DNA of 64,000 bases, from assembly GCF_988242995.1 (NCBI RefSeq), contig NZ_OZ547043.1; one strand, written 5' to 3'. How positions within the stretch are numbered: position 1 is the first letter of the stretch; each line of letters starts with the position of its first letter. Below, piece after piece: positions 43,974 through 59,205 of this stretch. The translations under genes and the position numbers were made by a program. The notes beneath the pieces are model-generated. The model saw only the letters and a list, made by a program, of their open reading frames with translations, was not told where the DNA came from and did not search any database.

Positions 43974-44738
43974 ATGAAAGATGAACGTCGCCCTATTTGC
44001 GAAGTGGTTGCAGAGAGTATCGAACGGTTAATTATCGACGGCGTACTGAAGGTCGGTCAGCCGCTTCCCTCGGAACGTCGACTGTGTGAAAAGCTCGGCT
44101 TCTCACGCTCCGCACTGCGTGAAGGGCTGACCGTGCTGCGCGGGCGCGGGATTATTGAAACAGCGCAGGGTCGCGATTCTCGTGTCGCACGGCTTAATCG
44201 GGTGCAGGACACCAGCCCGCTAATTCATCTGTTCAGCACGCAGCCGCGAACGCTGTACGATCTGCTCGACGTTCGCGCATTGCTGGAGGGCGAATCGGCA
44301 AGGCTGGCGGCAACGCTGGGAACGCAGGCTGATTTTGTTGTGATAACCCGCTGTTATGAAAAAATGCTCGCCGCCAGTGAGAACAACAAAGAGATTTCGC
44401 TGATCGAACATGCACAGTTGGATCACGCTTTCCATCTCGCCATTTGTCAGGCTTCTCACAATCAGGTGTTGGTGTTTACGCTGCAATCATTGACCGATCT
44501 GATGTTTAATTCAGTGTTTGCCAGCGTAAATAATCTCTACCATCGACCACAGCAAAAAAAGCAGATCGATCGCCAGCATGCGCGGATCTACAACGCGGTG
44601 TTGCAGCGGCTGCCGCACGTCGCCCAGCGCGCAGCACGCGATCATGTGCGGACCGTGAAAAAGAATCTCCACGATATCGAGCTGGAAGGCCACCATTTGA
44701 TTCGCTCGGCGGTGCCGCTGGAGATGAAGCAGGGGTGA
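43974..44738 (+). CDS. glcC: GntR-family transcriptional activator of the glc operon
   Basis: Start set to MKDERRPICEV (254 aa); N-terminal winged HTH and FCD domain. Confidence 0.9.
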   Translation: MKDERRPICEVVAESIERLIIDGVLKVGQPLPSERRLCEKLGFSRSALREGLTVLRGRGIIETAQGRDSRVARLNRVQDTSPLIHLFSTQPRTLYDLLDVRALLEGESARLAATLGTQADFVVITRCYEKMLAASENNKEISLIEHAQLDHAFHLAICQASHNQVLVFTLQSLTDLMFNSVFASVNNLYHRPQQKKQIDRQHARIYNAVLQRLPHVAQRAARDHVRTVKKNLHDIELEGHHLIRSAVPLEMKQG

Positions 44739-44744
44739 CTGCCA

Positions 44745-45683
44745 TCAAATCTGCTTTTCATACAATCGGTAACGCTTGTACGGCTCTGCCCCAATGCGTT
44801 CCAGCATGTTATTCATGCCTGTATTGGTTTCGAGGATCCATGACATTTCCAGCGCATCGATCTTCCGGCGGGCAAACGGATCGCGTAAGGCTTCAATCAA
44901 TAACAGCGCAATCACCGGGCCGATGCGGCTAAACTGATACTCGTCCCGCACGCCCATCAGCGGTACTCGCGCAGTTCGCACACCGCTGACTTTTAAACGC
45001 CACAGCAATTTTGCCCAGCCGAAGGGAAAGAGCGATCCGTTCAGATCGGCAATCGCCTCGTTGATGTTTGGCAAGCCAACAATAAACGCGCAGGGTGCAG
45101 AATCAATCTCAGCGATGTAGATCATATCGTCCGGCACCAGATATTTAAGTTGATCGCCCATAGTCGCGAATTCATGTTCGGTAAACGGCACAAATCCCCA
45201 GTTGTGCTGCCAGCCAGAGTTGAAAATCTCACGCAGGATCTGCATCTCTTCGGCAAACCGCTGGCGATTGATGCAGCGAATGGTCACCTTCTTACGCACC
45301 TGATCCATCAGTTTTTTTAGCGCCGGAGAGAAAGTGAGATCGGTTCGCTGCATCCACCACGCTAGTAAATCAATGCCTTTGTGATAACCCAATTGTTCAA
45401 TATGCGCGGCATACCACGGTTTACCGTGCGGCATCATCGCACAGGGTGGTGTATCGAAACCTTCAATCAGTAATCCGCTTTCCTGATTGATATTCAGGCT
45501 GAAAGGACCGCTGATCTTACTTGCACCTTGTGACTTCAACCACGCTTCCGCTGCGCCAAACAACGCGGCAAAAACCTGCGGATCATCAATGGCGTCAATC
45601 ATGCCGAAATGACCGGTATCTTCACCGTAACGCTCGCGGTGCAAGGTATCTATTTGCACGGTAATACGCCCAACTATCTGCCC
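44745..45683 (-). pseudogene. yghO: yghO, C-terminal 312 codons, separated from its N-terminus by IS4
   Basis: Frame stays open from 45683 down to the stop at 44745 and is in phase with the N-terminal fragment at 47123-47326 once IS4 plus one copy of the target duplication are removed. Confidence 0.75.
45671..45683. repeat. Left copy of the 13-bp IS4 target-site duplication CAACTATCTGCCC
   Basis: Identical 13-mer at 47110-47122 immediately flanking the other IS4 end. Confidence 0.85.
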
Positions 45684-47109
45684 TAATGCCGATCAGTTAA
45701 GGATCAGTTGACCGATCCAGTGGCTGTGTAAGAATCCGGAAACGCTCACTTGTTTCCGGATTTTTTTATGCACATTGGACAGGCTCTTGATCTGGTATCC
45801 CGTTACGATTCTCTGCGTAACCCACTGACTTCTCTGGGGGATTACCTCGACCCCGAACTCATCTCTCGTTGCCTTGCCGAATCAGGTACTGTAACGCTAC
45901 GCAAGCGCCGTCTTCCCCTCGAAATGATGGTCTGGTGTATTGTTGGCATGGCGCTTGAGCGTAAAGAACCTCTTCACCAGATTGTGAATCGCCTGGACAT
46001 CATGCTGCCGGGCAATCGCCCCTTCGTTGCCCCCAGTGCCGTTATTCAGGCCCGCCAGCGCCTGGGAAGTGAGGCTGTCCGCCGCGTGTTCACGAAAACA
46101 GCGCAGCTCTGGCATAACGCCACGCCGCATCCGCACTGGTGCGGCCTGACCCTGCTGGCCATCGATGGTGTGTTCTGGCGCACACCGGATACACCAGAGA
46201 ACGATGCAGCCTTCCCCCGCCAGACACATGCCGGGAACCCGGCGCTCTACCCGCAGGTCAAAATGGTCTGCCAGATGGAACTGACCAGCCATCTGCTGAC
46301 GGCTGCAGCCTTCGGCACGATGAAGAACAGCGAAAATGAGCTTGCTGAGCAACTTATAGAACAAACCGGCGATAACACTCTGACGTTAATGGATAAAGGT
46401 TATTACTCACTGGGACTGTTAAATGCCTGGAGCCTGGCGGGAGAACACCGCCACTGGATGATACCTCTCAGAAAGGGAGCGCAATATGAAGAGATCAGAA
46501 AACTGGGTAAAGGCGATCATCTGGTGAAGCTGAAAACCAGCCCGCAGGCACGAAAAAAGTGGCCGGGACTGGGAAATGAAGTGACTGCCCGCCTGCTGAC
46601 CGTGACGCGCAAAGGAAAAGTCTGCCATCTGCTGACGTCGATGACGGACGCCATGCGCTTCCCCGGAGGAGAAATGGGGGATCTGTACAGTCATCGCTGG
46701 GAAATCGAACTGGGATACAGGGAGATAAAACAGACGATGCAACGGAGCAGGCTGACGCTGAGAAGTAAAAAGCCGGAGCTTGTGGAGCAAGAGCTGTGGG
46801 GTGTCTTACTGGCTTATAATCTGGTGAGATATCAGATGATTAAAATGGCGGAACATCTGAAAGGTTACTGGCCGAATCAACTGAGTTTCTCAGAATCATG
46901 CGGAATGGTGATGAGAATGCTGATGACATTGCAGGGCGCTTCACCGGGACGTATACCGGAGCTGATGCGCGATCTTGCAAGTATGGGACAACTTGTGAAA
47001 TTACCGACAAGAAGGGAAAGGGCCTTCCCGAGAGTGGTAAAGGAGAGGCCCTGGAAATACCCCACAGCCCCGAAAAAGAGCCAGTCAGTTGCTTAACTGA
47101 CTGGCATTA
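45684..47109 (+). mobile_element. IS4, complete 1426-bp copy
   Basis: Terminal inverted repeats TAATGCCGATCAGTTAAG (45684-45701) and CTTAACTGACTGGCATTA (47092-47109); length exactly 1426 bp; flanked by 13-bp direct repeats. Confidence 0.85.
45768..47096 (+). CDS. insG: IS4 transposase (DDE family)
   Basis: 442 aa from [16 protein letters not shown]..., recalled as the IS4 transposase; the track ORF adds six residues upstream. Confidence 0.85.
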
Positions 47110-47326
47110 CAACTATCTGCCCCGCTTTTTTTGCCACCCACGCCTGCCAGATGATATGGTCCGTCCCCGGATTTTTCGCAGACAAATGCTCGTTGCGTTC
47201 AATGAATAAAGGGGGTATCCAGTTTGGATCGTCGGGATAAAGTGATGACGGAAAAGCGATAAATGCCTTAAGGTCATTTTTATTAATTACTTTTTCAATT
47301 TTAATCATCAGCAGATCGCATTCCAT
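47110..47326 (-). pseudogene. yghO: yghO N-terminal fragment (68 codons) plus right copy of the IS4 target duplication
   Basis: MECDLLMIKIEKVINKNDLKAFIAF... reads in frame into the duplicated 13-mer (47110-47122), then terminates inside IS4 in the track ORF. Confidence 0.75.
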
Positions 47327-47697: not shown

Positions 47698-49422
47698 ATG
47701 TCTAATAAAATCTTTACGCATTCCCTACCTATGCGCTATGCCGATTTTCCAACGCTGGTTGATGCTTTGGACTACGCCGCTCTGAGTAGCGCCGGAATGA
47801 ATTTTTATGACAGACGTTGCCAACTTGAAGATCAACTGGAATATCAGACGTTAAAAGCGCGTGCCGAAGCTGGTGCGAAGCGGTTGTTATCGCTGAACCT
47901 GAAAAAAGGCGATCGCGTGGCGCTGATTGCCGAAACCAGTAGCGGGTTCGTAGAGGCTTTTTTTTCCTGCCAGTATGCCGGCTTAGTCGCCGTCCCGTTG
48001 GCGATTCCAATGGGCGTCGGTCAGCGGGATTCCTGGAGCGCCAAACTGCAGGGTTTACTGGCAAGTTGCCAGCCCGCAGCCATTATCACTGGTGATGAGT
48101 GGTTACCGCTGGTCAATGCCGCGACGCATAACAACAACCCCGAATTACATGTTTTAAGCCACGCCTGGTTTAAGGCATTACCGGAAGCCGATGTTGCGCT
48201 CCAGCGTCCAGTTCCGAACGATATCGCCTACCTCCAGTACACCTCCGGCAGCACCCGTTTTCCCCGTGGCGTCATTATCACCCATCGCGAAGTGATGGCT
48301 AATCTACGTGCTATAAGCCACGATGGCATTAAATTACGCCCTGGCGACCGCTGCGTCTCCTGGCTGCCTTTCTACCATGATATGGGACTGGTCGGCTTTC
48401 TCCTGACCCCCGTCGCCACGCAGCTCTCAGTAGATTATTTGCGCACTCAGGATTTTGCCATGCGTCCTCTGCAATGGCTTAAATTGATCAGTAAAAATCG
48501 CGGCACCGTTTCCGTTGCGCCGCCGTTTGGCTATGAATTGTGCCAGCGCCGCGTGAATGAAAAAGATCTCGCTGAACTGGATCTTTCCTGCTGGCGCGTT
48601 GCTGGTATTGGTGCTGAGCCGATCTCCGCAGAACAACTCCATCAATTCGCTGAATGTTTCCGTCAGGTTAACTTTGACGATAAAACTTTCATGCCGTGCT
48701 ACGGACTGGCAGAAAATGCGCTGGCTGTCAGCTTCTCTGATGAAGCCTCCGGGGTTGTGGTTAACGAAGTGGATCGCGACATCCTTGAATATCAGGGCAA
48801 AGCCGTCGCGCCGGGTGCTGAAACACGCGCCGTATCGACTTTCGTCAACTGCGGTAAAGCGTTGCCGGAACATGGCATTGAAATCCGCAATGAAGCAGGT
48901 ATGCCGGTCGCGGAACGTGTGGTAGGCCATATTTGCATCTCCGGCCCTAGCCTGATGAGCGGTTACTTTGGCGACCAGATTTCACAAGACGAGATTGCCG
49001 CGACGGGCTGGTTAGACACCGGCGACCTCGGTTATCTGCTGGACGGTTATCTGTATGTCACCGGACGCATTAAAGATCTGATTATTATTCGTGGCCGTAA
49101 TATCTGGCCGCAGGATATTGAATATATTGCGGAACAGGAACCGGAAATTCATTCTGGCGATGCGATTGCTTTTGTTACCGCCCAGGAAAAAATCATTCTG
49201 CAGATCCAGTGTAGGATCAGCGACGAAGAACGTCGTGGGCAGCTTATCCACGCACTGGTAGCACGGATCCAAAGCGAATTTGGCGTAACAGCGGCTATCG
49301 ATCTGTTGCCGCCCCACAGTATTCCCCGAACGTCCTCCGGCAAGCCTGCCCGTGCGGAAGCGAAAAAACGTTATCAGAAGGCTTATGCTGCAAGCCTTCA
49401 TGTGCAGGAATCCCTGGCATGA
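47698..49422 (+). CDS. Fatty acyl-AMP ligase / acyl-ACP synthetase-like adenylating enzyme
   Basis: AMP-binding core motif YTSGSTRFPRGV; about 575 aa. Start uncertain (track uses TTG at 47671; first ATG is 47698). Confidence 0.7.
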   Translation: MSNKIFTHSLPMRYADFPTLVDALDYAALSSAGMNFYDRRCQLEDQLEYQTLKARAEAGAKRLLSLNLKKGDRVALIAETSSGFVEAFFSCQYAGLVAVPLAIPMGVGQRDSWSAKLQGLLASCQPAAIITGDEWLPLVNAATHNNNPELHVLSHAWFKALPEADVALQRPVPNDIAYLQYTSGSTRFPRGVIITHREVMANLRAISHDGIKLRPGDRCVSWLPFYHDMGLVGFLLTPVATQLSVDYLRTQDFAMRPLQWLKLISKNRGTVSVAPPFGYELCQRRVNEKDLAELDLSCWRVAGIGAEPISAEQLHQFAECFRQVNFDDKTFMPCYGLAENALAVSFSDEASGVVVNEVDRDILEYQGKAVAPGAETRAVSTFVNCGKALPEHGIEIRNEAGMPVAERVVGHICISGPSLMSGYFGDQISQDEIAATGWLDTGDLGYLLDGYLYVTGRIKDLIIIRGRNIWPQDIEYIAEQEPEIHSGDAIAFVTAQEKIILQIQCRISDEERRGQLIHALVARIQSEFGVTAAIDLLPPHSIPRTSSGKPARAEAKKRYQKAYAASLHVQESLA

Positions 49423-50333
49423 ATCAAACTGTCGCGGTGACGGGCGCTACCGGGTTTATCGGTAAATATATTATCGATAACCTGCTCGCCCGCGGCTTTC
49501 ACGTTCGCGCATTGACGCGTACTGCCCGCGCTCACGTCAATGACAATCTCATCTGGGTGCGCGGTTCTCTGGAAGATACTCATTCACTTAGCGAACTGGT
49601 TGCCGGAGCCAGCGCGGTGGTCCATTGCGCCGGACAAGTGCGCGGGCACAAAGAAGAGATTTTTACCCGCTGTAACGTTGACGGCAGCCTGCGACTGATG
49701 CAAGCGGCAAAAGAGAGCGGCTTTTGCCAACGTTTTCTGTTTATCTCTTCGCTGGCGGCGCGCCATCCCGAACTCTCCTGGTACGCAAATTCCAAACACG
49801 TCGCCGAACAACGGCTGACTGCAATGGCTGATGAAATTACGCTGGGCGTTTTTCGTCCGACAGCCGTGTATGGTCCCGGCGATAAAGAGTTAAAACCGCT
49901 GTTTGACTGGATGCTGCGCGGCCTGCTGCCACGACTTGGTGCGCCAGATACACAACTCTCTTTCCTGCACGTCACCGATTTTGCGCAAGCAGTGGGTCAG
50001 TGGTTAAACGCCGAAACTGTACAGACGCAAACCTATGAATTATGCGATGGCGTCGCTGGCGGCTATGACTGGCAACGCGTACGACAGCTTGCCGCCGAAG
50101 CCCGTTGTGGTTCTGTGCGGATGGTTGGCATTCCTCTGCCGCTACTCACCTGCCTTGCGGATATCAGTACTGCGTTGAGTCGCCTGGCAGGTAAAGAACC
50201 TATGCTGACCCGCTCGAAAATTCGTGAATTAACCCACGCCGACTGGTCGGCAAATAATAACCGTATTTCTGAAGATATTAATTGGTTTCCCGGGATTAGC
50301 CTGGAACACGCATTACGCAACGGGCTATTTTGA
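49419..50333 (+). CDS. NAD(P)-dependent reductase of the extended SDR (epimerase/dehydratase) family
   Basis: N-terminal Rossmann motif TGATGFIG and catalytic YANSK (YxxxK); ATGA overlap with the upstream ligase. Confidence 0.7.
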   Translation: MNQTVAVTGATGFIGKYIIDNLLARGFHVRALTRTARAHVNDNLIWVRGSLEDTHSLSELVAGASAVVHCAGQVRGHKEEIFTRCNVDGSLRLMQAAKESGFCQRFLFISSLAARHPELSWYANSKHVAEQRLTAMADEITLGVFRPTAVYGPGDKELKPLFDWMLRGLLPRLGAPDTQLSFLHVTDFAQAVGQWLNAETVQTQTYELCDGVAGGYDWQRVRQLAAEARCGSVRMVGIPLPLLTCLADISTALSRLAGKEPMLTRSKIRELTHADWSANNNRISEDINWFPGISLEHALRNGLF

Positions 50334-50364: not shown

Positions 50365-50613
50365 ATGGTAAATCGTGAAATAGTAATGGATTACATCCTT
50401 TCCTGTTTACAGGATTTGGTCGAAAACGGTGTGGAAATTAAGCCCGACAGCGATCTCGTCAACGATCTTGGCCTGGAGTCGATCAAAGTGATGGATCTCT
50501 TAATGATGCTGGAAGACAGATTCGATATTTCCATTCCTATTAATATTCTGCTGGATGTCAAAACCCCTGCGCAATTAATGGAAACACTACTTCCATGGCT
50601 GGAGAATAAATAA
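50365..50613 (+). CDS. Acyl carrier protein
   Basis: 82 aa four-helix-sized protein with phosphopantetheine-site-like DLGLESIKVMDL. Confidence 0.65.
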   Translation: MVNREIVMDYILSCLQDLVENGVEIKPDSDLVNDLGLESIKVMDLLMMLEDRFDISIPINILLDVKTPAQLMETLLPWLENK

Positions 50614-51785
50614 TGGGGCTATACGATAAATATGCGCGCCTTGCTGGCGAGCGACTGCAATTTAGTGACAACGGGTTAACACCGTTTGGCACCTGTATTG
50701 ATGAAGTGTATTCCGCCACCGAAGGTCGGATCGGCAATAAAAAAGTGATTCTGGCCGGGACCAATAATTATCTCGGTTTAACCTTTAATCATGATGCCAT
50801 CGCCGAAGGTCAGGCAGCATTAGCGGCCCAAGGCACCGGCACCACCGGTTCTCGTATGGCAAACGGCAGTTATGCGCCGCATCTGGCGTTAGAGAAAGAG
50901 ATCGCCGAGTTTTTTAATCGCCCTACCGCTATCGTTTTTTCAACCGGTTATACCGCTAATTTAGGCGTCATCAGCGCACTTGCCGACCATAACGCCGTGG
51001 TGTTACTGGATGCCGACAGCCACGCCAGTATTTATGACGCCTGTTCTCTCGGTGGCGCGGAAATTATTCGTTTCCGCCATAACGATGCTAAAGATCTGGA
51101 ACGGCGCATGGTTCGCCTCGGTGAACGGGCAAAAGAGGCGATTATCATCGTTGAAGGCATCTACAGTATGCTCGGTGACGTTGCGCCGCTGGCGGAAATT
51201 GTTGATATCAAACGTCGTCTCGGTGGTTATTTGATTGTCGATGAAGCGCATTCGTTTGGCGTGTTAGGCGCAACGGGGCGCGGACTGGCTGAAGCCGTTG
51301 GCGTTGAAGATGATGTGGATATTATCGTTGGTACTTTCAGTAAAAGTCTGGCCTCGATTGGCGGTTTTGCTGTCGGTTCGGAAGCGATGGAAGTGCTGCG
51401 CTACGGCAGCCGCCCGTATATTTTTACCGCCTCTCCTTCTCCGTCCTGCATTGCGACCGTGCGCTCGTCGTTAAGAACCATTGCTACACAACCAGAGTTG
51501 CGGCAAAAGCTGATGGATAATGCCAACCATCTGTATGACGGTCTGCAAAAACTGGGTTATGAGTTAAGTTCACATATTAGCCCGGTAGTGCCAGTAATAA
51601 TCGGTTCGAAAGAGGAAGGTTTACGCATCTGGCGCGAGCTTATTTCGCTGGGCGTTTATGTGAATCTTATCCTGCCACCTGCCGCGCCTGCAGGCATCAC
51701 GCTGCTGCGCTGTAGCGTAAACGCTGCCCACAGTCGTGAGCAAATCGATGCCATCATTCAGGCATTTGCTACTCTGAAGCAGTAA
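50613..51785 (+). CDS. PLP-dependent alpha-oxoamine synthase (serine palmitoyltransferase / 8-amino-7-oxononanoate synthase family)
   Basis: 390 aa with the family blocks FSTGYTANLG, HASIYDA, DEAHSFGVLG and the PLP-lysine motif GTFSKSLASIGGF; TAATG overlap with the ACP gene. Confidence 0.75.
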   Translation: MGLYDKYARLAGERLQFSDNGLTPFGTCIDEVYSATEGRIGNKKVILAGTNNYLGLTFNHDAIAEGQAALAAQGTGTTGSRMANGSYAPHLALEKEIAEFFNRPTAIVFSTGYTANLGVISALADHNAVVLLDADSHASIYDACSLGGAEIIRFRHNDAKDLERRMVRLGERAKEAIIIVEGIYSMLGDVAPLAEIVDIKRRLGGYLIVDEAHSFGVLGATGRGLAEAVGVEDDVDIIVGTFSKSLASIGGFAVGSEAMEVLRYGSRPYIFTASPSPSCIATVRSSLRTIATQPELRQKLMDNANHLYDGLQKLGYELSSHISPVVPVIIGSKEEGLRIWRELISLGVYVNLILPPAAPAGITLLRCSVNAAHSREQIDAIIQAFATLKQ

Positions 51786-51790
51786 TGTGA

Positions 51791-51819
51791 GCCCGCTGTG
51801 GTGCTGCGCCACGGCGGGT
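51791..51819. terminator. Hairpin between convergent stop codons, probable bidirectional terminator
   Basis: GCCCGCTGTGG...CCACGGCGGGT imperfect inverted repeat occupying the whole gap between the synthase stop (51783-51785) and the permease stop (51820-51822). Confidence 0.4.
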
Positions 51820-52899
51820 TTAATGTTGACTGTCATACCAATACACCAGGCTCAACGCCACCAGCACAAACACTATCGGTAAACCGAGCGCGGTAACAGG
51901 TGCGCTCAACGCAAATAACAATCCCAGATTGACCATGATTTGATAGCTGATCCAGGTGAGTAAGCCAACGATGACGCCTACAGCGAGACGGCTACCCATC
52001 CCTGGCGAGCGCGGGGCGCTAAAGGTAAACGGCACAGCCAGCAAAATCATCGCCAGAGTTAAGATGGGTTGCCCCAGTTTTTCCCACAGTGCAAGGCGGT
52101 AATCGCTGCTGGGTTGCCCGGTTTCCTGCAAATAATGGATGTAATGATTAAGCTGACGGACAGAAAAAGTATTCCCCGGCATCGATAACTCTTCAAGATC
52201 CATACTGGTGAAGGCCGATTGCCAGGCAAGATTATCTGATGTTTCCAGCGTTTCTTTGCCATTCAACCATTTTTTATGATTCACACCATGCAGGATCCAC
52301 GTTTTGTCGTCTTCAATGGAGGCACTGCGTGCAAAAATGTAGGATTCGAGCGAGAGATCGTCGCGATAATGAAATATCTCCACGCCCACAGGCTGGCCCT
52401 GCTCGTTCAGCGATTTCACCGTCACAAATTCATTACCGCGCCTGGCCCAAAGCATATTGCCGGTAATGTCATCGTCCTCCCCCAACGCGGTGGCAGTCGA
52501 TTTGATTTGCAGCGCCTGTTGCTGCAATGGCGACGCCACCCACTCATCTATCGCGCCTAACGAAACAGTCCACAATATCCCGGCAACCAGCGCCACCAGT
52601 GCAATACGGAAGATAGAAAACCCAGTGCTGCGAATGGCGGTAAGCTCACTGTTTTTCGATAACTGCCCCAGGCCAACAATCCCTCCCAATAATGCGATAA
52701 ACGGCGAAAGTTCGACCAGTGTACGCGGTAAGGTCATCAGCACCACCAGCACCGCCTGAGTCCAGCGATAACCACCCGGGCTGACATCATCCAGTTCGTT
52801 AATCAGGTTGAAGGTGGTAAAAAGCGGCAGCAATAGCCCTGCGGCGGCGGCAAAACCGAGAAAGAGATGACGGATTAAATAGCGACTGAAAACATTCAT
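51820..52899 (-). CDS. LptG/LptF-family (YjgP/YjgQ) permease, second of a pair
   Basis: Start set to MNVFSRYLIRHLF (ATGA overlap with the upstream paralogue); six-helix permease-like hydrophobicity with a large periplasmic loop. Confidence 0.65.
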   Translation of the reverse strand: MNVFSRYLIRHLFLGFAAAAGLLLPLFTTFNLINELDDVSPGGYRWTQAVLVVLMTLPRTLVELSPFIALLGGIVGLGQLSKNSELTAIRSTGFSIFRIALVALVAGILWTVSLGAIDEWVASPLQQQALQIKSTATALGEDDDITGNMLWARRGNEFVTVKSLNEQGQPVGVEIFHYRDDLSLESYIFARSASIEDDKTWILHGVNHKKWLNGKETLETSDNLAWQSAFTSMDLEELSMPGNTFSVRQLNHYIHYLQETGQPSSDYRLALWEKLGQPILTLAMILLAVPFTFSAPRSPGMGSRLAVGVIVGLLTWISYQIMVNLGLLFALSAPVTALGLPIVFVLVALSLVYWYDSQH

Positions 52900-53966
52900 C
52901 GGGAAAATTTCTGCAGCAATGAGAAGTCGCGTGCGACCAGCATCAGCAGGCCCATTAGCATGAGTCCGGGTACTAACCACAAACCAGGAATGAGGGGAAT
53001 CGCGCCGTTAGCCACCAGCGTACGGCAGACGTCGCCGCCATAAAAAATGGCAATAAACAGCAACGTCAGTGGCAATAATGTTGAAAATCGCCCTTGCCGC
53101 GGTTTTACCCGACTTAATGAAATGGCCAGCAGCGCCATCAACAATGCTGTCAGGCCACGGCTTTGTCGCCATTGCAGTTCGGCATGATCGGCTGGAAAGA
53201 CGGAGCGCGCCAGCTCCGTGACCGATTTTGCTTTGCGTTTGACGTTAGGGCTTTGATCCAGCGGATTCAGATGTAATTGCAGATTACGGTAGATCTGTTC
53301 GTTGTCGTCACGCCCCTGATGATCGAGAAGATAGGCGGTCCCGTTATGCAACATAACGGTCGGTTTCTCAGGTGATGGGTCAACCACATCAACCGAACGG
53401 GCGCGGAAAATGCGGGTTCGATTGGCAGTAGAAGTATAAATCAGCGCGTCAGTCAGGCGATTATTATCCTGATCAACCGTCTGCGAAAGGATCATTCGTC
53501 CGTTATCGTTAGTGTTAAATTTCTTTGCCCGCAACTGGCGAACATCCAGCTCCGACTGTGACTGTTGCTCCAGTTGATAAATCTGCGCATAAGCCCACGG
53601 ACGACCATACATCGACAGAAGGGTGACAAAAATACTTAGCGGTATCGCCAGATAAAGAACGGCTTTGTACAAGCGTCCCGGACTGCCCCCCGCCGCAGAA
53701 ATAGCGGTAATTTCCGAGTCGGTATACATCTGCCCTAGCGTCACGCCAACTGACACATACAGTCCAACAGGTAACAACATCTCCAGTGCAATCAGCACCT
53801 TGTAGAAAACAATATCCAGCACAACATCAAGAGCTAATGTCCCATTTGCCGCTTCGGTCAGATAACGCTGTGCGGAGTAGCTGGCGAAAATAAAGATCAG
53901 AAAACCGACGATAATCAGCACCAGACGGCGCGTACCACGCATGATGTAGTGTTCAACCAGCTTCAT
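52896..53966 (-). CDS. LptF/LptG-family (YjgP/YjgQ) permease, first of a pair
   Basis: 356 aa beginning MKLVEHYIMRGTRRLVLIIVGFLIF, same family architecture as the downstream paralogue. Confidence 0.65.
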   Translation of the reverse strand: MKLVEHYIMRGTRRLVLIIVGFLIFIFASYSAQRYLTEAANGTLALDVVLDIVFYKVLIALEMLLPVGLYVSVGVTLGQMYTDSEITAISAAGGSPGRLYKAVLYLAIPLSIFVTLLSMYGRPWAYAQIYQLEQQSQSELDVRQLRAKKFNTNDNGRMILSQTVDQDNNRLTDALIYTSTANRTRIFRARSVDVVDPSPEKPTVMLHNGTAYLLDHQGRDDNEQIYRNLQLHLNPLDQSPNVKRKAKSVTELARSVFPADHAELQWRQSRGLTALLMALLAISLSRVKPRQGRFSTLLPLTLLFIAIFYGGDVCRTLVANGAIPLIPGLWLVPGLMLMGLLMLVARDFSLLQKFSR

Positions 53967-53996: not shown

Positions 53997-54560
53997 TTAT
54001 TCATTGATCAGTTTCTGCGCCAGCGCAATGACATGTTCTACCTCTTCCGGCGTCAGGCTGCCGTCCTTTGCCCACTGAATTTGCCCGGCTTTATTCAGCA
54101 CCAGAATGGTTGAACTCTGCTCCGGCAACCGCCAGGCAACGCGTCCCTGTCCATTGCCGTCAATAACGAATTGCGCCCACGGATAGCGGCGTTTATTTTT
54201 TTCGATTTTGCCAACGACAAAATAGCCAGTACCAAAAATGGCATCATCGGTGTTCACAATGGTGGTGGGCTGAAAACGATCCTGCGGAAAGTTTGCCGCT
54301 TCAACCGCTTTAATTAACAGTGAGTTCTTTTTCTTCGCCGACTTACGCCCGGCGATATACTGAATAATGCGAACTTTTCCCGCCAGCTGTGTGCTGTTCC
54401 ACTTTTGGTAGTGAATTTCGTCGTCGCTATTCAGAAGCAGCTCGCCGCCTTCCTGGATATAAACAGGGGTAACCGTTTTGCCAGTGACGAAATTGTGTGC
54501 CTGCACACCCGGGGCTAAGAGCATGATAATCAGCGCAATAATCAAACGAGATGACATCAT
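53997..54560 (-). CDS. Secreted/periplasmic protein, YtfJ-like
   Basis: 187 aa with cleavable signal peptide (MMSSRLIIALIIMLLAPGVQA); family assignment is from recall only. Confidence 0.45.
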   Translation of the reverse strand: MMSSRLIIALIIMLLAPGVQAHNFVTGKTVTPVYIQEGGELLLNSDDEIHYQKWNSTQLAGKVRIIQYIAGRKSAKKKNSLLIKAVEAANFPQDRFQPTTIVNTDDAIFGTGYFVVGKIEKNKRRYPWAQFVIDGNGQGRVAWRLPEQSSTILVLNKAGQIQWAKDGSLTPEEVEHVIALAQKLINE

Positions 54561-54568
54561 TGCTCCGG

Positions 54569-55393
54569 TTATAGCGGAAAACGCGAAATCAGCAGCTCTA
54601 AGCGCTGGCGAATATCGCTATCCAGCGCCACCGGTGCATCATACGACTGGCGGTTTTCCATATCATCCGCCACCATGTCGTCGTGTTTATCCCCCATCAG
54701 GCCATTAATGGCGGCGAGGAAGCGGGAAATCTGTAACGCCTCTTTATTTTCAGGATCAAGCGATCTTAGGGTGTCGTAATAAGAAACCTGCTGGCTGATG
54801 ATTTTTCGCACATCATGAAATTCCCTGCCAGTTAGTCGCGGTTTGGCAATTATCTCTTTCAGGGTATGCATTTGCTTTTGCCGATAGGCAATAAAACCGC
54901 TTACGCTTTCTAACTGGCTATGGCGTAATGAATAGTTCACCAACGACCAGACCGGAGAGCTTAAATAAACCCGTAACAGGTTGCCGTAATACGACACAAT
55001 ATTTTTCTTACCGTTACGAAAGCCGTCCTGAAAACGCCCCAAAAAAACGGTCGTTTTGCCGAATAAAAATCCGGCCTGATGCTTTTTTAAATACAGCCGT
55101 TGCGCAAAACGCAGGTGCTTGTAGCGCGCTCGCATGTATTTAAATTGTTTGCGCTCATCAGCAGTCAGCTCATCGCCTTTGGCCTGTTTGCATATTAAAC
55201 GCAGTAACTCCTGGCGATTGACGCCATTGAGCCAGAATTGCAGGCATAACGCGTAATTATCATGGATGATTTCGGTGGTACAACTTAGTGCGATAGTCGG
55301 CGGCAAACTGACCTGTGCATCAACGACATCATCTTCTTCAATCGCAACAAATAGACGCTCGCTAGCCTCAAGCGGGAAATATTTTCTCATCAT
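54569..55393 (-). CDS. Conserved hypothetical protein, no recognised domain
   Basis: 274 aa basic soluble protein; 1-bp overlap with the upstream flippase gene. Confidence 0.45.
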   Translation of the reverse strand: MMRKYFPLEASERLFVAIEEDDVVDAQVSLPPTIALSCTTEIIHDNYALCLQFWLNGVNRQELLRLICKQAKGDELTADERKQFKYMRARYKHLRFAQRLYLKKHQAGFLFGKTTVFLGRFQDGFRNGKKNIVSYYGNLLRVYLSSPVWSLVNYSLRHSQLESVSGFIAYRQKQMHTLKEIIAKPRLTGREFHDVRKIISQQVSYYDTLRSLDPENKEALQISRFLAAINGLMGDKHDDMVADDMENRQSYDAPVALDSDIRQRLELLISRFPL

Positions 55394-56742
55394 CAGGATT
55401 TCTCTCCGGCTGCGTTATAAAGCAAGGAATGGCGCTGAAAAAATGCCTTTAAGGTTGGAATTAGCGAGAGCACCACATCCAGACATTGCCCAGCGAAGTA
55501 AGCAAATGCAGCCCCCAGCACGCCAAACAGATGACAGAACATGAACAGCAATACGATGTAGCCGATTGAGGCGATGGTTTGCGCCACGAGAAAAGCACGC
55601 TGTTTTCCCGCCATCAATAGCAATGACTCCTGTGGGAAGCCCAGCATCGAAATCACAATTGCGCCCAGCATCACCTGAATCAGGTCATACGCTTCGAGAT
55701 ACTTAACGCCAAACACCAGCGAAATGAGCGGCTTGCCGACGATCAACACCGCGAGCGCCACCAGAATACCGATTCCGCCCGCCAGTAAACCGGACTTCAC
55801 GCCTAACAACCACGGTCTGGTGGTGCGCGGATCTAAACGCATCACCTCTGGGTAAAAACTTTTACCCAGTAAACCCGCTGGCGTTCCGGCGGCGTCGAAG
55901 AATGTCATGGCGATTTTAAATAACCCGGCGGCAGCGGGTCCTAACACGATCCCCACCAACACTGTGCTGCACGAGTTACGTGCCGACCAGATGGAGTGGG
56001 CAATGTTGGTTGACCAGACAAAACTCCACGCGCCTTTAATGTGTCGGGCAGACTCAAACAGATTCAATTTGAAGGCGTTATGGATATTTCTGCGGCGTAA
56101 TTCGCGCGCGGCAAACCACCAGTACATGGTGCCGCCAACCAGATTCGACACGTACCAGGCAATAACAAAACCCGCAAAACCAAAGTCAAAATACCAGGCT
56201 ACGACGCTCCCCGCTGCGCGCAGAAAAGGTTTCGTCGCTTGCTGTACAGCAATTAGATCGAAGCGATCTACCGCACGCAGAATGCCGGTCGGCGTGGAGG
56301 AAGCCATTGAAGGAATGAGCGTGCAATACAGCGCGGCCAGCCAAAAGCTTTGGTCATCCAGACCTAATGAATGGGAAAGAAAAGGGAGTAAGGCAATGCC
56401 GCCGACAATCGCCACCGCGCCGCTGACGATATCCAGCGAGAAGGAAAATGAGACGACATTGCGGAATTGCTGCGGATTATTGTTGGTTAATGCTGGTGTT
56501 CCGTACTGCACCACCAACTGCCATGTCTGAAACTTAATAAAATCGCTGATCGACTTGGCGTACGATTGCACAATCACCAGTACGCCAAACATGGCGGGCG
56601 TCATCCCTTTACCGGCACACGAGAGCGCCAACAAACCCAGCAAGGCGCTCACGACATTACTGGAGCCTAACCAGGCGCTATTGCGAATAATGGTGCGAAA
56701 CGCGCCATCTGCAAACCAATGTTTGATGTTAAAACCCGCCAA
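55393..56742 (-). CDS. yghQ: Wzx-like (MOP superfamily) flippase
   Basis: 449 aa polytopic protein with N-terminal IIRNSAWLGSSNVVSALLGLLAL typical of polysaccharide-biosynthesis flippases; adjacent to yghR. Confidence 0.6.
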   Translation of the reverse strand: MAGFNIKHWFADGAFRTIIRNSAWLGSSNVVSALLGLLALSCAGKGMTPAMFGVLVIVQSYAKSISDFIKFQTWQLVVQYGTPALTNNNPQQFRNVVSFSFSLDIVSGAVAIVGGIALLPFLSHSLGLDDQSFWLAALYCTLIPSMASSTPTGILRAVDRFDLIAVQQATKPFLRAAGSVVAWYFDFGFAGFVIAWYVSNLVGGTMYWWFAARELRRRNIHNAFKLNLFESARHIKGAWSFVWSTNIAHSIWSARNSCSTVLVGIVLGPAAAGLFKIAMTFFDAAGTPAGLLGKSFYPEVMRLDPRTTRPWLLGVKSGLLAGGIGILVALAVLIVGKPLISLVFGVKYLEAYDLIQVMLGAIVISMLGFPQESLLLMAGKQRAFLVAQTIASIGYIVLLFMFCHLFGVLGAAFAYFAGQCLDVVLSLIPTLKAFFQRHSLLYNAAGEKS

Positions 56743-56787: not shown

Positions 56788-57546
56788 TTAAGTTAAACTT
56801 CGGCGGTCAGAAACGATGGCAACCAGAGAAACCGCCTTCTGTGCCTGTTCCAGCACCTCGCTGTAAGGCGCTCTGGAATCAATCTCAAGAATTTTTGTGC
56901 CGTTATAGCCAATCGTCGACATGACGCCGATTTTGTCCTGCAGCTCGGCATAGTCATGGTCAGGCTTGCGGGAGATGGCAGTATCAATATCAATCCCCAA
57001 GCGAATGATTAATTCAGGACGGTATTGCGCCATTTGTTGGTATAAACGCCGTTCGCGCTGCGCCAGAAACATGCTGATTTTCCCGGTCGCACGTTCGACG
57101 CCGATCCCCGGTCCGTCATAATAAAAGCCCGAAATTTCAGCCTGCGGGAAGCGATCGCTGACCACCAGAACGCCACTTTGCGCCAGTCGCTGAACCTTGC
57201 GTAGATTCGCCATTCTTCGCAGCGAGAAGCAGTACATAATCACCGCCGCCCATAGCGCTGGAGATTTGGTTTTCATGCTTTGGGTTTTCGAGGATTTGGC
57301 CGCCAGTCGCCGTTCGAGCCAGACGCCAACCAACGGCAATCGTTTGATTTTGTCGCCGTCTTCGCCGGAGAGCAGCCCCAAATAGCGGCGCTCGGTTTGC
57401 CAGTGTTGTTGCAGCGATTTCACCAGGTCGGTGGTCAGCGTGGATTTACCGGTGCCATCACACCCGACCACCGCAATCAGCCCCGGAATGTAGTTGGGCT
57501 GCGGCACGGTTGTACTATTAACAGTTTGTGTTTGTAGTGCATCCAT
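56788..57546 (-). CDS. yghR: P-loop NTPase, thymidylate-kinase-like putative kinase
   Basis: 252 aa with N-terminal Walker A VVGCDGTGKSTL; paralogue of the next two genes. Confidence 0.7.
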   Translation of the reverse strand: MDALQTQTVNSTTVPQPNYIPGLIAVVGCDGTGKSTLTTDLVKSLQQHWQTERRYLGLLSGEDGDKIKRLPLVGVWLERRLAAKSSKTQSMKTKSPALWAAVIMYCFSLRRMANLRKVQRLAQSGVLVVSDRFPQAEISGFYYDGPGIGVERATGKISMFLAQRERRLYQQMAQYRPELIIRLGIDIDTAISRKPDHDYAELQDKIGVMSTIGYNGTKILEIDSRAPYSEVLEQAQKAVSLVAIVSDRRSLT

Positions 57547-57577: not shown

Positions 57578-58291
57578 TCAGGAAAGCGCGGCGTGAATTG
57601 CGCGTAGTGACGCTTGCATAATTTCATCGGCTGGTTGCCGACCATCCAGTTCAAGGATCCTGGCGCCATTGAATGTCAGTTGCGGCGTAACGGCGATTTT
57701 TTCCTGTAACGCCGCCAGTTGATGGTCAGGTTTACGCGAAAACGCGGTTTGTTCATCAATGCCAAGACGAATCAACAATACGGGCAAATAAGACGCCATC
57801 CATTGGTACAGCTTCAGCTCGCGCTGCCTTAACATTTTTATCCAGCCGTTACCGCCCGTGGTTTTTGCCAATTGCGGGCCATCAAAGCGAAAACCCGGCA
57901 CTTCAACCTGCGGGTAGCGGTCGGTGATGAGCAGATAGCCTTGCTGGCTTTTACACAACATTTTGCGAAACTTGTACGCCCGCCAGCAGGAAAGCAGATA
58001 GATAACCAGCGCAGTAATATTGCCAGGCGGTGTTAAGGGCTTTTCGTGCACATGTGCCGCTTTACTTCGCAAATAACGCCCAAAAGGTGCGCCAATAACA
58101 GGGAGCTGTGAAATCCATTCGCCAATTCGCCCGGACGATTGCCCGAGATAAATGTGTTCTGTTGGCATTGTTGCTGCCAGTTCATTTACCAGGCTTGCCG
58201 TGAGGGTCGATTTACCTGAACCATCACATCCTACAATGGCAATAACACGCACTGGCGTGGAATTAATTATTGACATATTACGTTGATTCAC
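57578..58291 (-). CDS. yghS: P-loop NTPase, thymidylate-kinase-like putative kinase
   Basis: 237 aa, Walker A IVGCDGSGKSTL; collinear with yghR. Confidence 0.7.
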   Translation of the reverse strand: MNQRNMSIINSTPVRVIAIVGCDGSGKSTLTASLVNELAATMPTEHIYLGQSSGRIGEWISQLPVIGAPFGRYLRSKAAHVHEKPLTPPGNITALVIYLLSCWRAYKFRKMLCKSQQGYLLITDRYPQVEVPGFRFDGPQLAKTTGGNGWIKMLRQRELKLYQWMASYLPVLLIRLGIDEQTAFSRKPDHQLAALQEKIAVTPQLTFNGARILELDGRQPADEIMQASLRAIHAALS

Positions 58292-59157: not shown

Positions 59158-59169
59158 TCAAAAATGGAA

Positions 59170-59194
59170 ATGCCCGATCGCCAGGACCGGGCAT
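59170..59194. terminator. Bidirectional rho-independent terminator between convergent yghT and pitB
   Basis: Stem ATGCCCG / CGGGCAT flanked by AAAAT on one side and TTTTC on the other. Confidence 0.45.
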
Positions 59195-59205
59195 TTTCAG
59201 GAAGG

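Follow-up and report, generated by a model that had tools for sequence, protein, structure and literature searches.

A GC-rich hairpin between the convergent sphingolipid synthesis and transport genes of Escherichia and its probable role as a one-strand terminator

Gene content of the locus

The window analysed here is a stretch of 64,000 nucleotides of DNA from contig NZ_OZ547043.1 of the assembly GCF_988242995.1. Its gene order is E. coli-like, comprising glcDEF, glcC, yghO, …, yghQRST, pitB, gss and yghU. Two strings of genes converge in it, one on each strand. Their identities, taken from the PGAP annotation, Pfam and the literature, are the following:

47698..49422, + strand: aasR, first gene of the putative + operon, a fatty acyl-AMP ligase or specialised acyl-ACP synthetase (Pfam AMP-binding; PGAP 'fatty acyl-AMP ligase' in locus L001)
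49419..50333, + strand: epi/cerR, a reductase of the NAD-dependent epimerase/dehydratase family
50365..50613, + strand: acpR, a specialised acyl carrier protein (Pfam PP-binding)
50613..51785, + strand: spt, serine palmitoyltransferase, a class I/II aminotransferase (Pfam Aminotran_1_2; PGAP 'spt') and last gene of the putative + operon
51820..52899, - strand: lptG2, an LptG paralogue (Pfam LptF_LptG, 1.5e-69; PGAP 'lptG') and last gene of the putative - operon
52896..53966, - strand: lptF2, an LptF paralogue with a 4-nt overlap with lptG2
53997..54560, - strand: ytfJ2, a YtfJ-family gene (Pfam YtfJ_HI0045)
54569..55393, - strand: orf274, a hypothetical protein of 274 aa with no Pfam match
55393..56742, - strand: yghQ, full-length, a flippase-like 'lipopolysaccharide biosynthesis protein' that is truncated in K-12
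56788-57546 and 57578-58291, - strand: yghR and yghS, P-loop kinase-like, at the head of the - gene string, with spacings of 31 and 45 nt

The genes from aasR through cerR and acpR to spt overlap or lie at most 31 nt apart, and those of the - string, from yghS to lptG2, overlap or are separated by gaps of at most 45 nt. This spacing suggests that each string forms one operon, and the orientation of the genes suggests that the hairpin lying between spt and lptG2 would be transcribed from both sides.

This is a known locus, described before as that of sphingolipid synthesis and transport. According to PMC9386255, the products of E. coli BL21 ECD_02851-02854 (aasR, epi/cerR, acpR and spt) have been shown biochemically to make 3-oxo-sphinganine, and ECD_02850 is yghO/cerS, the N-acyltransferase gene of the pathway. 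The LptF2/LptG2 paralogues found in sphingolipid loci are described as likely sphingolipid exporters, with the E. coli UTI89 locus drawn alongside, in bioRxiv 10.64898/2026.04.12.717747 and PMC11324152. The gene content therefore supports the initial annotation, in which a single hairpin separates two convergent gene strings of a lipid locus.

In the window, yghO (cerS/aca, the N-acyltransferase of the ceramide pathway) is split about 70 codons in by an IS4-family element of 1,426 bp at 45684-47109. This element has 18-nt terminal inverted repeats and is bordered by a 13-bp target-site duplication, CAACTATCTGCCC, at 45671-45683 and 47110-47122. In the strain of the window, ceramide synthesis is therefore probably interrupted at acylation. 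The IS4/yghO junction was found in none of the 5,426 complete E. coli genomes.

Structure of the intergenic hairpin

A gap of 34 nt (51786-51819) separates the stop codon of spt (51783-51785, + strand) from that of lptG2 (51822-51820, - strand), both of them being TAA. Within it, an inverted repeat at 51791-51819, with the sequence GCCCGCTGTGGTG-CTG-CGCCACGGCGGGT, takes up 29 of the 34 nt, and G or C stands at 23 of its 29 bases (79% GC). The earlier description of a gap nearly filled by one GC-rich inverted repeat was thus right to the base. The elements of this region are given below:

51791..51819: hairpin, with the 5' arm at 51791-51803, the loop at 51804-51806 (CTG), the 3' arm at 51807-51819 and a GC-rich core at 51792-51818
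51783..51828, + strand only: extended helix, in which the spt stop codon and the spacer UAAUGUGAG face the U-rich tail (UUU.AUGUUG), mostly through G·U and A-U pairs
51819..51827, + strand: U-rich tail of the putative + terminator, UUUAAUGUU, with 6 U in 9 nt, overlapping the complement of the lptG2 stop and of its last two codons
51782..51790, - strand: nucleotides after the stem core, CUCACAUUA, with 3 U in 9 nt, which is not a U-tract; they overlap the complement of the spt stop

Folded as a 34-mer, the + strand RNA forms a 13-bp stem with a CUG loop and three G·U pairs at -24.3 kcal/mol (z = -4.2; none of 200 shuffles folded as well). The - strand 34-mer gives a weaker fold at -15.7 kcal/mol (z = -2.0), which 7 of 200 shuffles matched: its stem has 9 bp, is interrupted by a C·A mismatch and closes on a loop of 7 nt. 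Both energies are far from zero, as expected for the hairpin that had been proposed. The strand difference can be followed to three pairs, 51791·51819, 51797·51813 and 51802·51808, which form as G·U in the + strand RNA alone and are C·A mismatches on the - strand. In a context of 60 nt, the + strand reaches -33.6 kcal/mol (z = -5.6, with none of 200 shuffles as good) through a helix spanning 51783-51828; this extended helix recurs in loci L001 and L063 and is absent from the - strand RNA.

When all 34-nt windows of the 64-kb window were folded on both strands, the most stable + strand 34-mer was the one at 51789-51822 (-26.6 kcal/mol), and the hairpin site ranked 333 among 63,967 34-mers on the - strand. 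The structure is far beyond chance on the + strand and modestly beyond chance on the - strand in the allele of the window. The same 34-mer scan returned, at a separate site (30214-30247), a REP-like palindrome, ATGCCGGATGCGGCGTGAACGCCTTATCCGGCAT, with -23.2 and -22.2 kcal/mol on its two strands.

Strand asymmetry and termination signals

The repeat had initially been regarded as a bidirectional terminator, and it is here that the initial annotation departs from the results, as the two strands differ strongly: in the + strand RNA a stable stem runs into a U-rich tail, whereas that of the - strand has a weaker stem, interrupted by a C·A mismatch, and no U-tract. The + stem followed by UUUAAUGUU has a T-tract score of 2.95, against 0.69 for the - tail CUCACAUUA, and a consensus scan placed a terminator-like site on the + strand at 51802-51816, with the tail GGTTTAATGT. 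A d'Aubenton-Carafa-style index (d), calculated with modern energy parameters and of relative meaning only, comes to +15 (+ strand) and -52 (- strand) in the window allele. The corresponding values for the majority E. coli allele are +25 and -30, the asymmetry being present in the commoner allele too. All Escherichia sequences examined share the - tail CUCACAUUA; on this strand their T-scores are 0.3-1.4 and their d values -30 to -55. The advantage of the + strand arises because the G·U pairs become C·A on the - strand and because the extension between the spt stop and the U-tail exists on the + strand only.

The hairpin begins 5 nt past the spt stop, and the lptG2 stop directly adjoins it. 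Because each stop codon thus lies 0-5 nt from the stem, both tails fall inside the coding end of the opposite gene. Judging by the known ribosome footprint, a ribosome terminating on spt would hide part of the 5' arm of the + strand stem, and one terminating on lptG2 the whole 5' arm of the - strand stem. Such a ribosome could hinder formation of the hairpin under tight translation coupling, especially on the - strand. In addition, the + U-tract UUUAAUGUU is interrupted, and therefore the efficiency of + termination may be moderate.

The region holds other convergent pairs. The 48-nt gap between yghT and pitB carries a palindrome at 59168-59196 flanked by A/T runs (AAATGCCCGG…CCGGGCATTT), which folds on both strands with a d index of -10 and +4. 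It is a more symmetric, textbook-looking two-way terminator than the spt/lptG2 hairpin. The stops of glcC and yghO are just 6 nt apart (44738-44745), with no room for a hairpin; a shared terminator is therefore not universal among the convergent pairs of the region.

Conservation among Escherichia

The spt/lptG2 junction is present in 4,117 of the 5,426 complete E. coli genomes. Searched with a 44-nt query, the hairpin region occurs at one place per genome in 4,112 of the 5,426 (median 1, at most 2). Being single-copy, the hairpin is ruled out as a REP or mobile element. A known RNA family is likewise ruled out, as Rfam, searched up to E ≤ 10, gave no match over 51786-51819. Identity to the window over all 44 nt is found in 65 of 4,114 matching records. 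In K-12 MG1655 (locus at 3130146-3131340), IS5LO lies directly between yghO and the truncated yghQ; this strain is without the genes from aasR to orf274 and part of yghQ, the hairpin included, through an IS5-associated deletion. K-12 is the strain behind most published 3'-end maps, and a literature search returned no usable Term-seq for non-K-12 E. coli. The E. coli junction also appears on a 273-bp contig (L060) of an Alkalicoccobacillus porphyridii assembly, at 1.5x coverage and with 100% and 95% protein identity for spt and lptG2, which is almost certainly E. coli contamination of that assembly.

Among 14 aligned Escherichia sequences, the commoner core is a perfect 10-bp repeat, CCCGCCGTGG…CCACGGCGGG. 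The window and three of the 14 have T at 51797, while most E. coli sampled have C, which gives the perfect repeat. With T, the position still pairs in the + strand RNA, as U·G, but is left as a C·A mismatch in that of the - strand. The cost to the - stem is about 6 kcal/mol (about -22 with C, about -16 with T); the + GC core loses about 2 kcal/mol (-24.2 to -22.0), or about 5 when the flanking pairs are included. With the majority E. coli allele, the - strand folds at -22.7 kcal/mol (z = -4.2). Strain 2015C-4498 carries an allele with a 1-nt insertion in the loop, at 51804.

Across the alignment of 14 sequences (11 of them distinct), standard pairs fill 96.4% of the pair cells, and sliding the partners by 1-3 columns leaves only 39-51% of cells paired. 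The observed pairing was reached by just 6 of 500 shuffles, a control that ignores relatedness and is applied to a small sample. Two pairs are changed on both sides, from C-G to U-A in SCPM-O-B-8794 and from G-C to A-U in E. whittamii. The alignment argues, modestly but consistently, that the pairing of the hairpin has been kept by selection. The G·U pairs, which exist in the + RNA alone, indicate that this selection acts on that transcript rather than on a DNA palindrome.

The junction in other genera

Outside Escherichia, one palindromic hairpin of unrelated sequence follows spt in 14 of 14 loci from nine genera, whichever gene faces spt. The count of covarying pairs was limited to Escherichia because the hairpins of other genera (Citrobacter, Pseudocitrobacter, Hafnia and others) resemble those of Escherichia in place and foldability only, so that aligning them is meaningless. 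Their termination signals are varied. Pantoea sp. A4 has a textbook two-way terminator at the junction (d = +32 and +45). Mangrovibacter has U-rich tails on both strands (T-tract scores of 4.09 and 3.83), with an index of +4.7 on the + strand and -9.1 on the other, and the junction hairpin of Pseudocitrobacter is without a U-tract on either side.

Regarding gene content, yghO, aasR, cerR, acpR and spt adjoin lptF2/G2, ytfJ2, orf274, yghQ and yghR/S/T in 10 genera, namely Escherichia, Citrobacter, Pseudocitrobacter, Hafnia, Pluralibacter, Serratia, Sodalis, Rosenbergiella, Mangrovibacter and Pantoea, and in Pseudomonas the linkage of the synthesis and transport gene sets is partial. In Escherichia, Citrobacter, Pseudocitrobacter and Hafnia, it is lptG2 that converges on spt; its place is taken by ytfJ2 in Rosenbergiella and Serratia sp. 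M24T3 and by yghT in Serratia, Mangrovibacter and Pantoea. In Sodalis, the gene after spt is co-directional. The position of lptF2G2 also depends on the genus (loci L009-L038): convergent with spt, 4.6 kb downstream on the same strand, or, in Pseudomonas, upstream of yghO. As the gene that faces spt varies by genus, the junction must have been rebuilt several times. Judged from these gene orders, the modules stay linked across Enterobacterales, with order and orientation reshuffled by genus.

Within E. coli, the two sides of the hairpin can be compared through SC487 and ATCC 43896. Against the window, both show 62 differences over about 470 positions (13% divergent) in the last third of lptG2, at about 51829-52294, and the flanks of this patch are about 98% identical to the window. 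Across LptG2, 19 amino acids are changed. On the spt side, there are 5 differences in 490 nt. The divergent lptG2 haplotype is 99% identical to cryptic-clade Escherichia (L005), which places the end of a recombination tract at the hairpin or within a few bases of it. As the patch abuts the hairpin, the two sides can have separate histories, and sharing it is no evidence of their co-evolution. The initial suggestion of a tight co-evolution of the two operons therefore stands in part: both gene sets co-occur across Enterobacterales and Pseudomonas, but this does not follow from the shared hairpin, as the partner of spt changes and the patch ends at the hairpin. The evidence for co-evolution is the synteny across genera, not the hairpin.

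Interpretation of the hairpin

The reading that we prefer, with a probability of roughly 0.7, is that the hairpin acts as the Rho-independent terminator of the + ceramide-synthesis operon aasR-cerR-acpR-spt, and that on the - strand it is a non-canonical element at best. The sequence makes it a credible intrinsic terminator for this unit, since it follows the last gene with a GC-rich stem and UUUAAUGUU. The nascent + RNA would form the stem of 12-13 bp, and the U-rich stretch directly after it would bring about the release of RNA polymerase. Classical intrinsic terminators release the polymerase some 7-9 nt beyond the stem, which would put the ends of the + transcripts around 51826-51828, antisense to the last codons of lptG2.

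On the - strand, the hairpin would lie at the 3' end of the putative yghS-yghR-yghQ-orf274-ytfJ2-lptF2-lptG2 transcript, as a weaker stem-loop without a U-tract. There it may make polymerases pause, so that converging ones obstruct each other and need further events for release. It may also, or instead, protect RNA that has been terminated farther downstream, its stem-loop stopping 3'-to-5' exonucleases. In this account, the structure, its asymmetry, its conservation and its position are observed features; that transcription does end there, how efficiently it does so on either strand and how the genes are grouped into operons is what we infer, the operons from gene spacing only.

The exonuclease-halting role could also be extended to both strands, the hairpin then being mainly a protector of RNA 3' ends: polymerases would be stopped farther downstream, either by Rho on the untranslated antisense RNA or by colliding, and exonucleases would then trim both mRNAs back to the stem-loop, which stabilises them. 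Rho-terminated transcripts are known to be trimmed back to stem-loops. The stability of the hairpin on both strands in most alleles and the lack of a U-tract on the - strand are consistent with this role, and palindromes between convergent genes have been reported as terminators and/or degradation blocks (bioRxiv 10.64898/2026.03.23.713779). However, a usable U-tract right after the + stem would be needless for a pure stabiliser. The C and G content downstream of the hairpin gave no clear signal of a Rho site on either strand; on the - strand, no rut-like stretch, C-rich and G-poor, stands out, C minus G being -0.03 to +0.08 where the background is 0.02 (sd 0.08). As the main function of the element, protection is held to be rather unlikely, although it is compatible with, and not exclusive of, the preferred terminator reading where the - strand is concerned.

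A hairpin that ends both operons efficiently, as a symmetric intrinsic terminator with a U-tract in each direction, is improbable. A single palindrome between convergent stops invites this view, all the more as the majority E. coli allele combines a perfect core repeat with a significant - strand fold and textbook two-way versions occupy the junction in some other genera, such as Pantoea sp. A4. Against it stand the constant - tail of Escherichia, with its low T-score and negative d, the mismatched - stem of the window, which folds at a z-score of only -2.0, and the restriction of the extended helix to the + strand.

It is also conceivable, though we hold it to be very improbable, that the asymmetry has a function of its own through read-through or, independently of this, that the hairpin is a preferred breakpoint of recombination, one edge of the 13%-divergent lptG2 patch coinciding with it. 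In the first case, the synthesis operon would be cleanly terminated, and polymerases coming from lptG2 might read through the weak - hairpin into antisense spt. If so, high transcription of the transporter operon would damp sphingolipid-synthesis transcription or collide with it, and the T or C at 51797, with its heavier effect on the - strand, would tune the coupling of the operons between strains.

Least credible of all is a role for the palindrome at the level of DNA, in protein binding, cruciform formation or recombination, or its origin as a small mobile or repetitive element of the REP type. The perfect inverted repeat of most E. coli and the coinciding boundary of the recombination patch could speak for such a reading, but it is at odds with G·U pairs that are tolerated, and often the conserved state, on one strand only, with the unrelated sequences of other genera, which have only foldability in common, and with the absence of an Rfam match.

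Returning to the + strand terminator that is favoured here, its importance beyond annotation would be little. It would fix the 3' boundary of the ceramide-synthesis operon for roughly three quarters of E. coli genomes, those that carry the locus. The transporter operon may have no clean terminator, and antisense read-through into spt would then be possible. For engineering of the locus, as in BL21(DE3) or UTI89, both 3' ends and the terminator would lie within 46 nt, and deleting the end of either gene would disturb the termination or stability of the other transcript.

Comparison with known systems

The gene content and order match E. coli BL21 ECD_02850-02854 and are thereby like the sphingolipid (ceramide) locus of Rhodobacteria, LptF2/LptG2 being known from Caulobacter; the window differs from the described locus in that its yghO is split by IS4. 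A keyword search of PMC9386255, bioRxiv 10.64898/2026.04.12.717747 and PMC11324152 found neither the hairpin nor termination mentioned.

Hairpins shared by both sides are common between convergent genes of E. coli. A study cited in bioRxiv 10.64898/2026.03.23.713779 counts 306 bidirectional terminators among about 704 convergent pairs of E. coli, and overlapping bidirectional terminators of such pairs were described by Ju, Li & Liu 2019, as summarised in bioRxiv 10.1101/2022.10.23.513370. The spt/lptG2 junction resembles them in having one hairpin element between convergent genes, by whose length the two transcripts would overlap. In contrast, its hairpin is less symmetric than a palindrome set between an A-tract and a U-tract. 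As in ynaJ-uspE, the putative intrinsic terminator of one direction is weak. The Liu laboratory has found that weak intrinsic terminators between convergent E. coli genes still serve as sites of pausing and collision (bioRxiv 10.1101/2022.10.23.513370).

Compared to the intrinsic terminators of E. coli, the + strand element has the same GC-rich stem of 12-13 bp, short loop and U-rich stretch, situated a few nt past the last stop of an operon, and its hairpin energy and tail are within the ordinary range. It differs in that the U-tract UUUAAUGUU is interrupted and lies within the coding end of the opposite gene, and in that a U-tract is missing on the - strand. The hairpin is thus a previously unremarked example of a commonplace element in a characterised locus, made only slightly unusual by its compaction, with both stops and both tails within 46 nt, and by its clear bias towards one strand.
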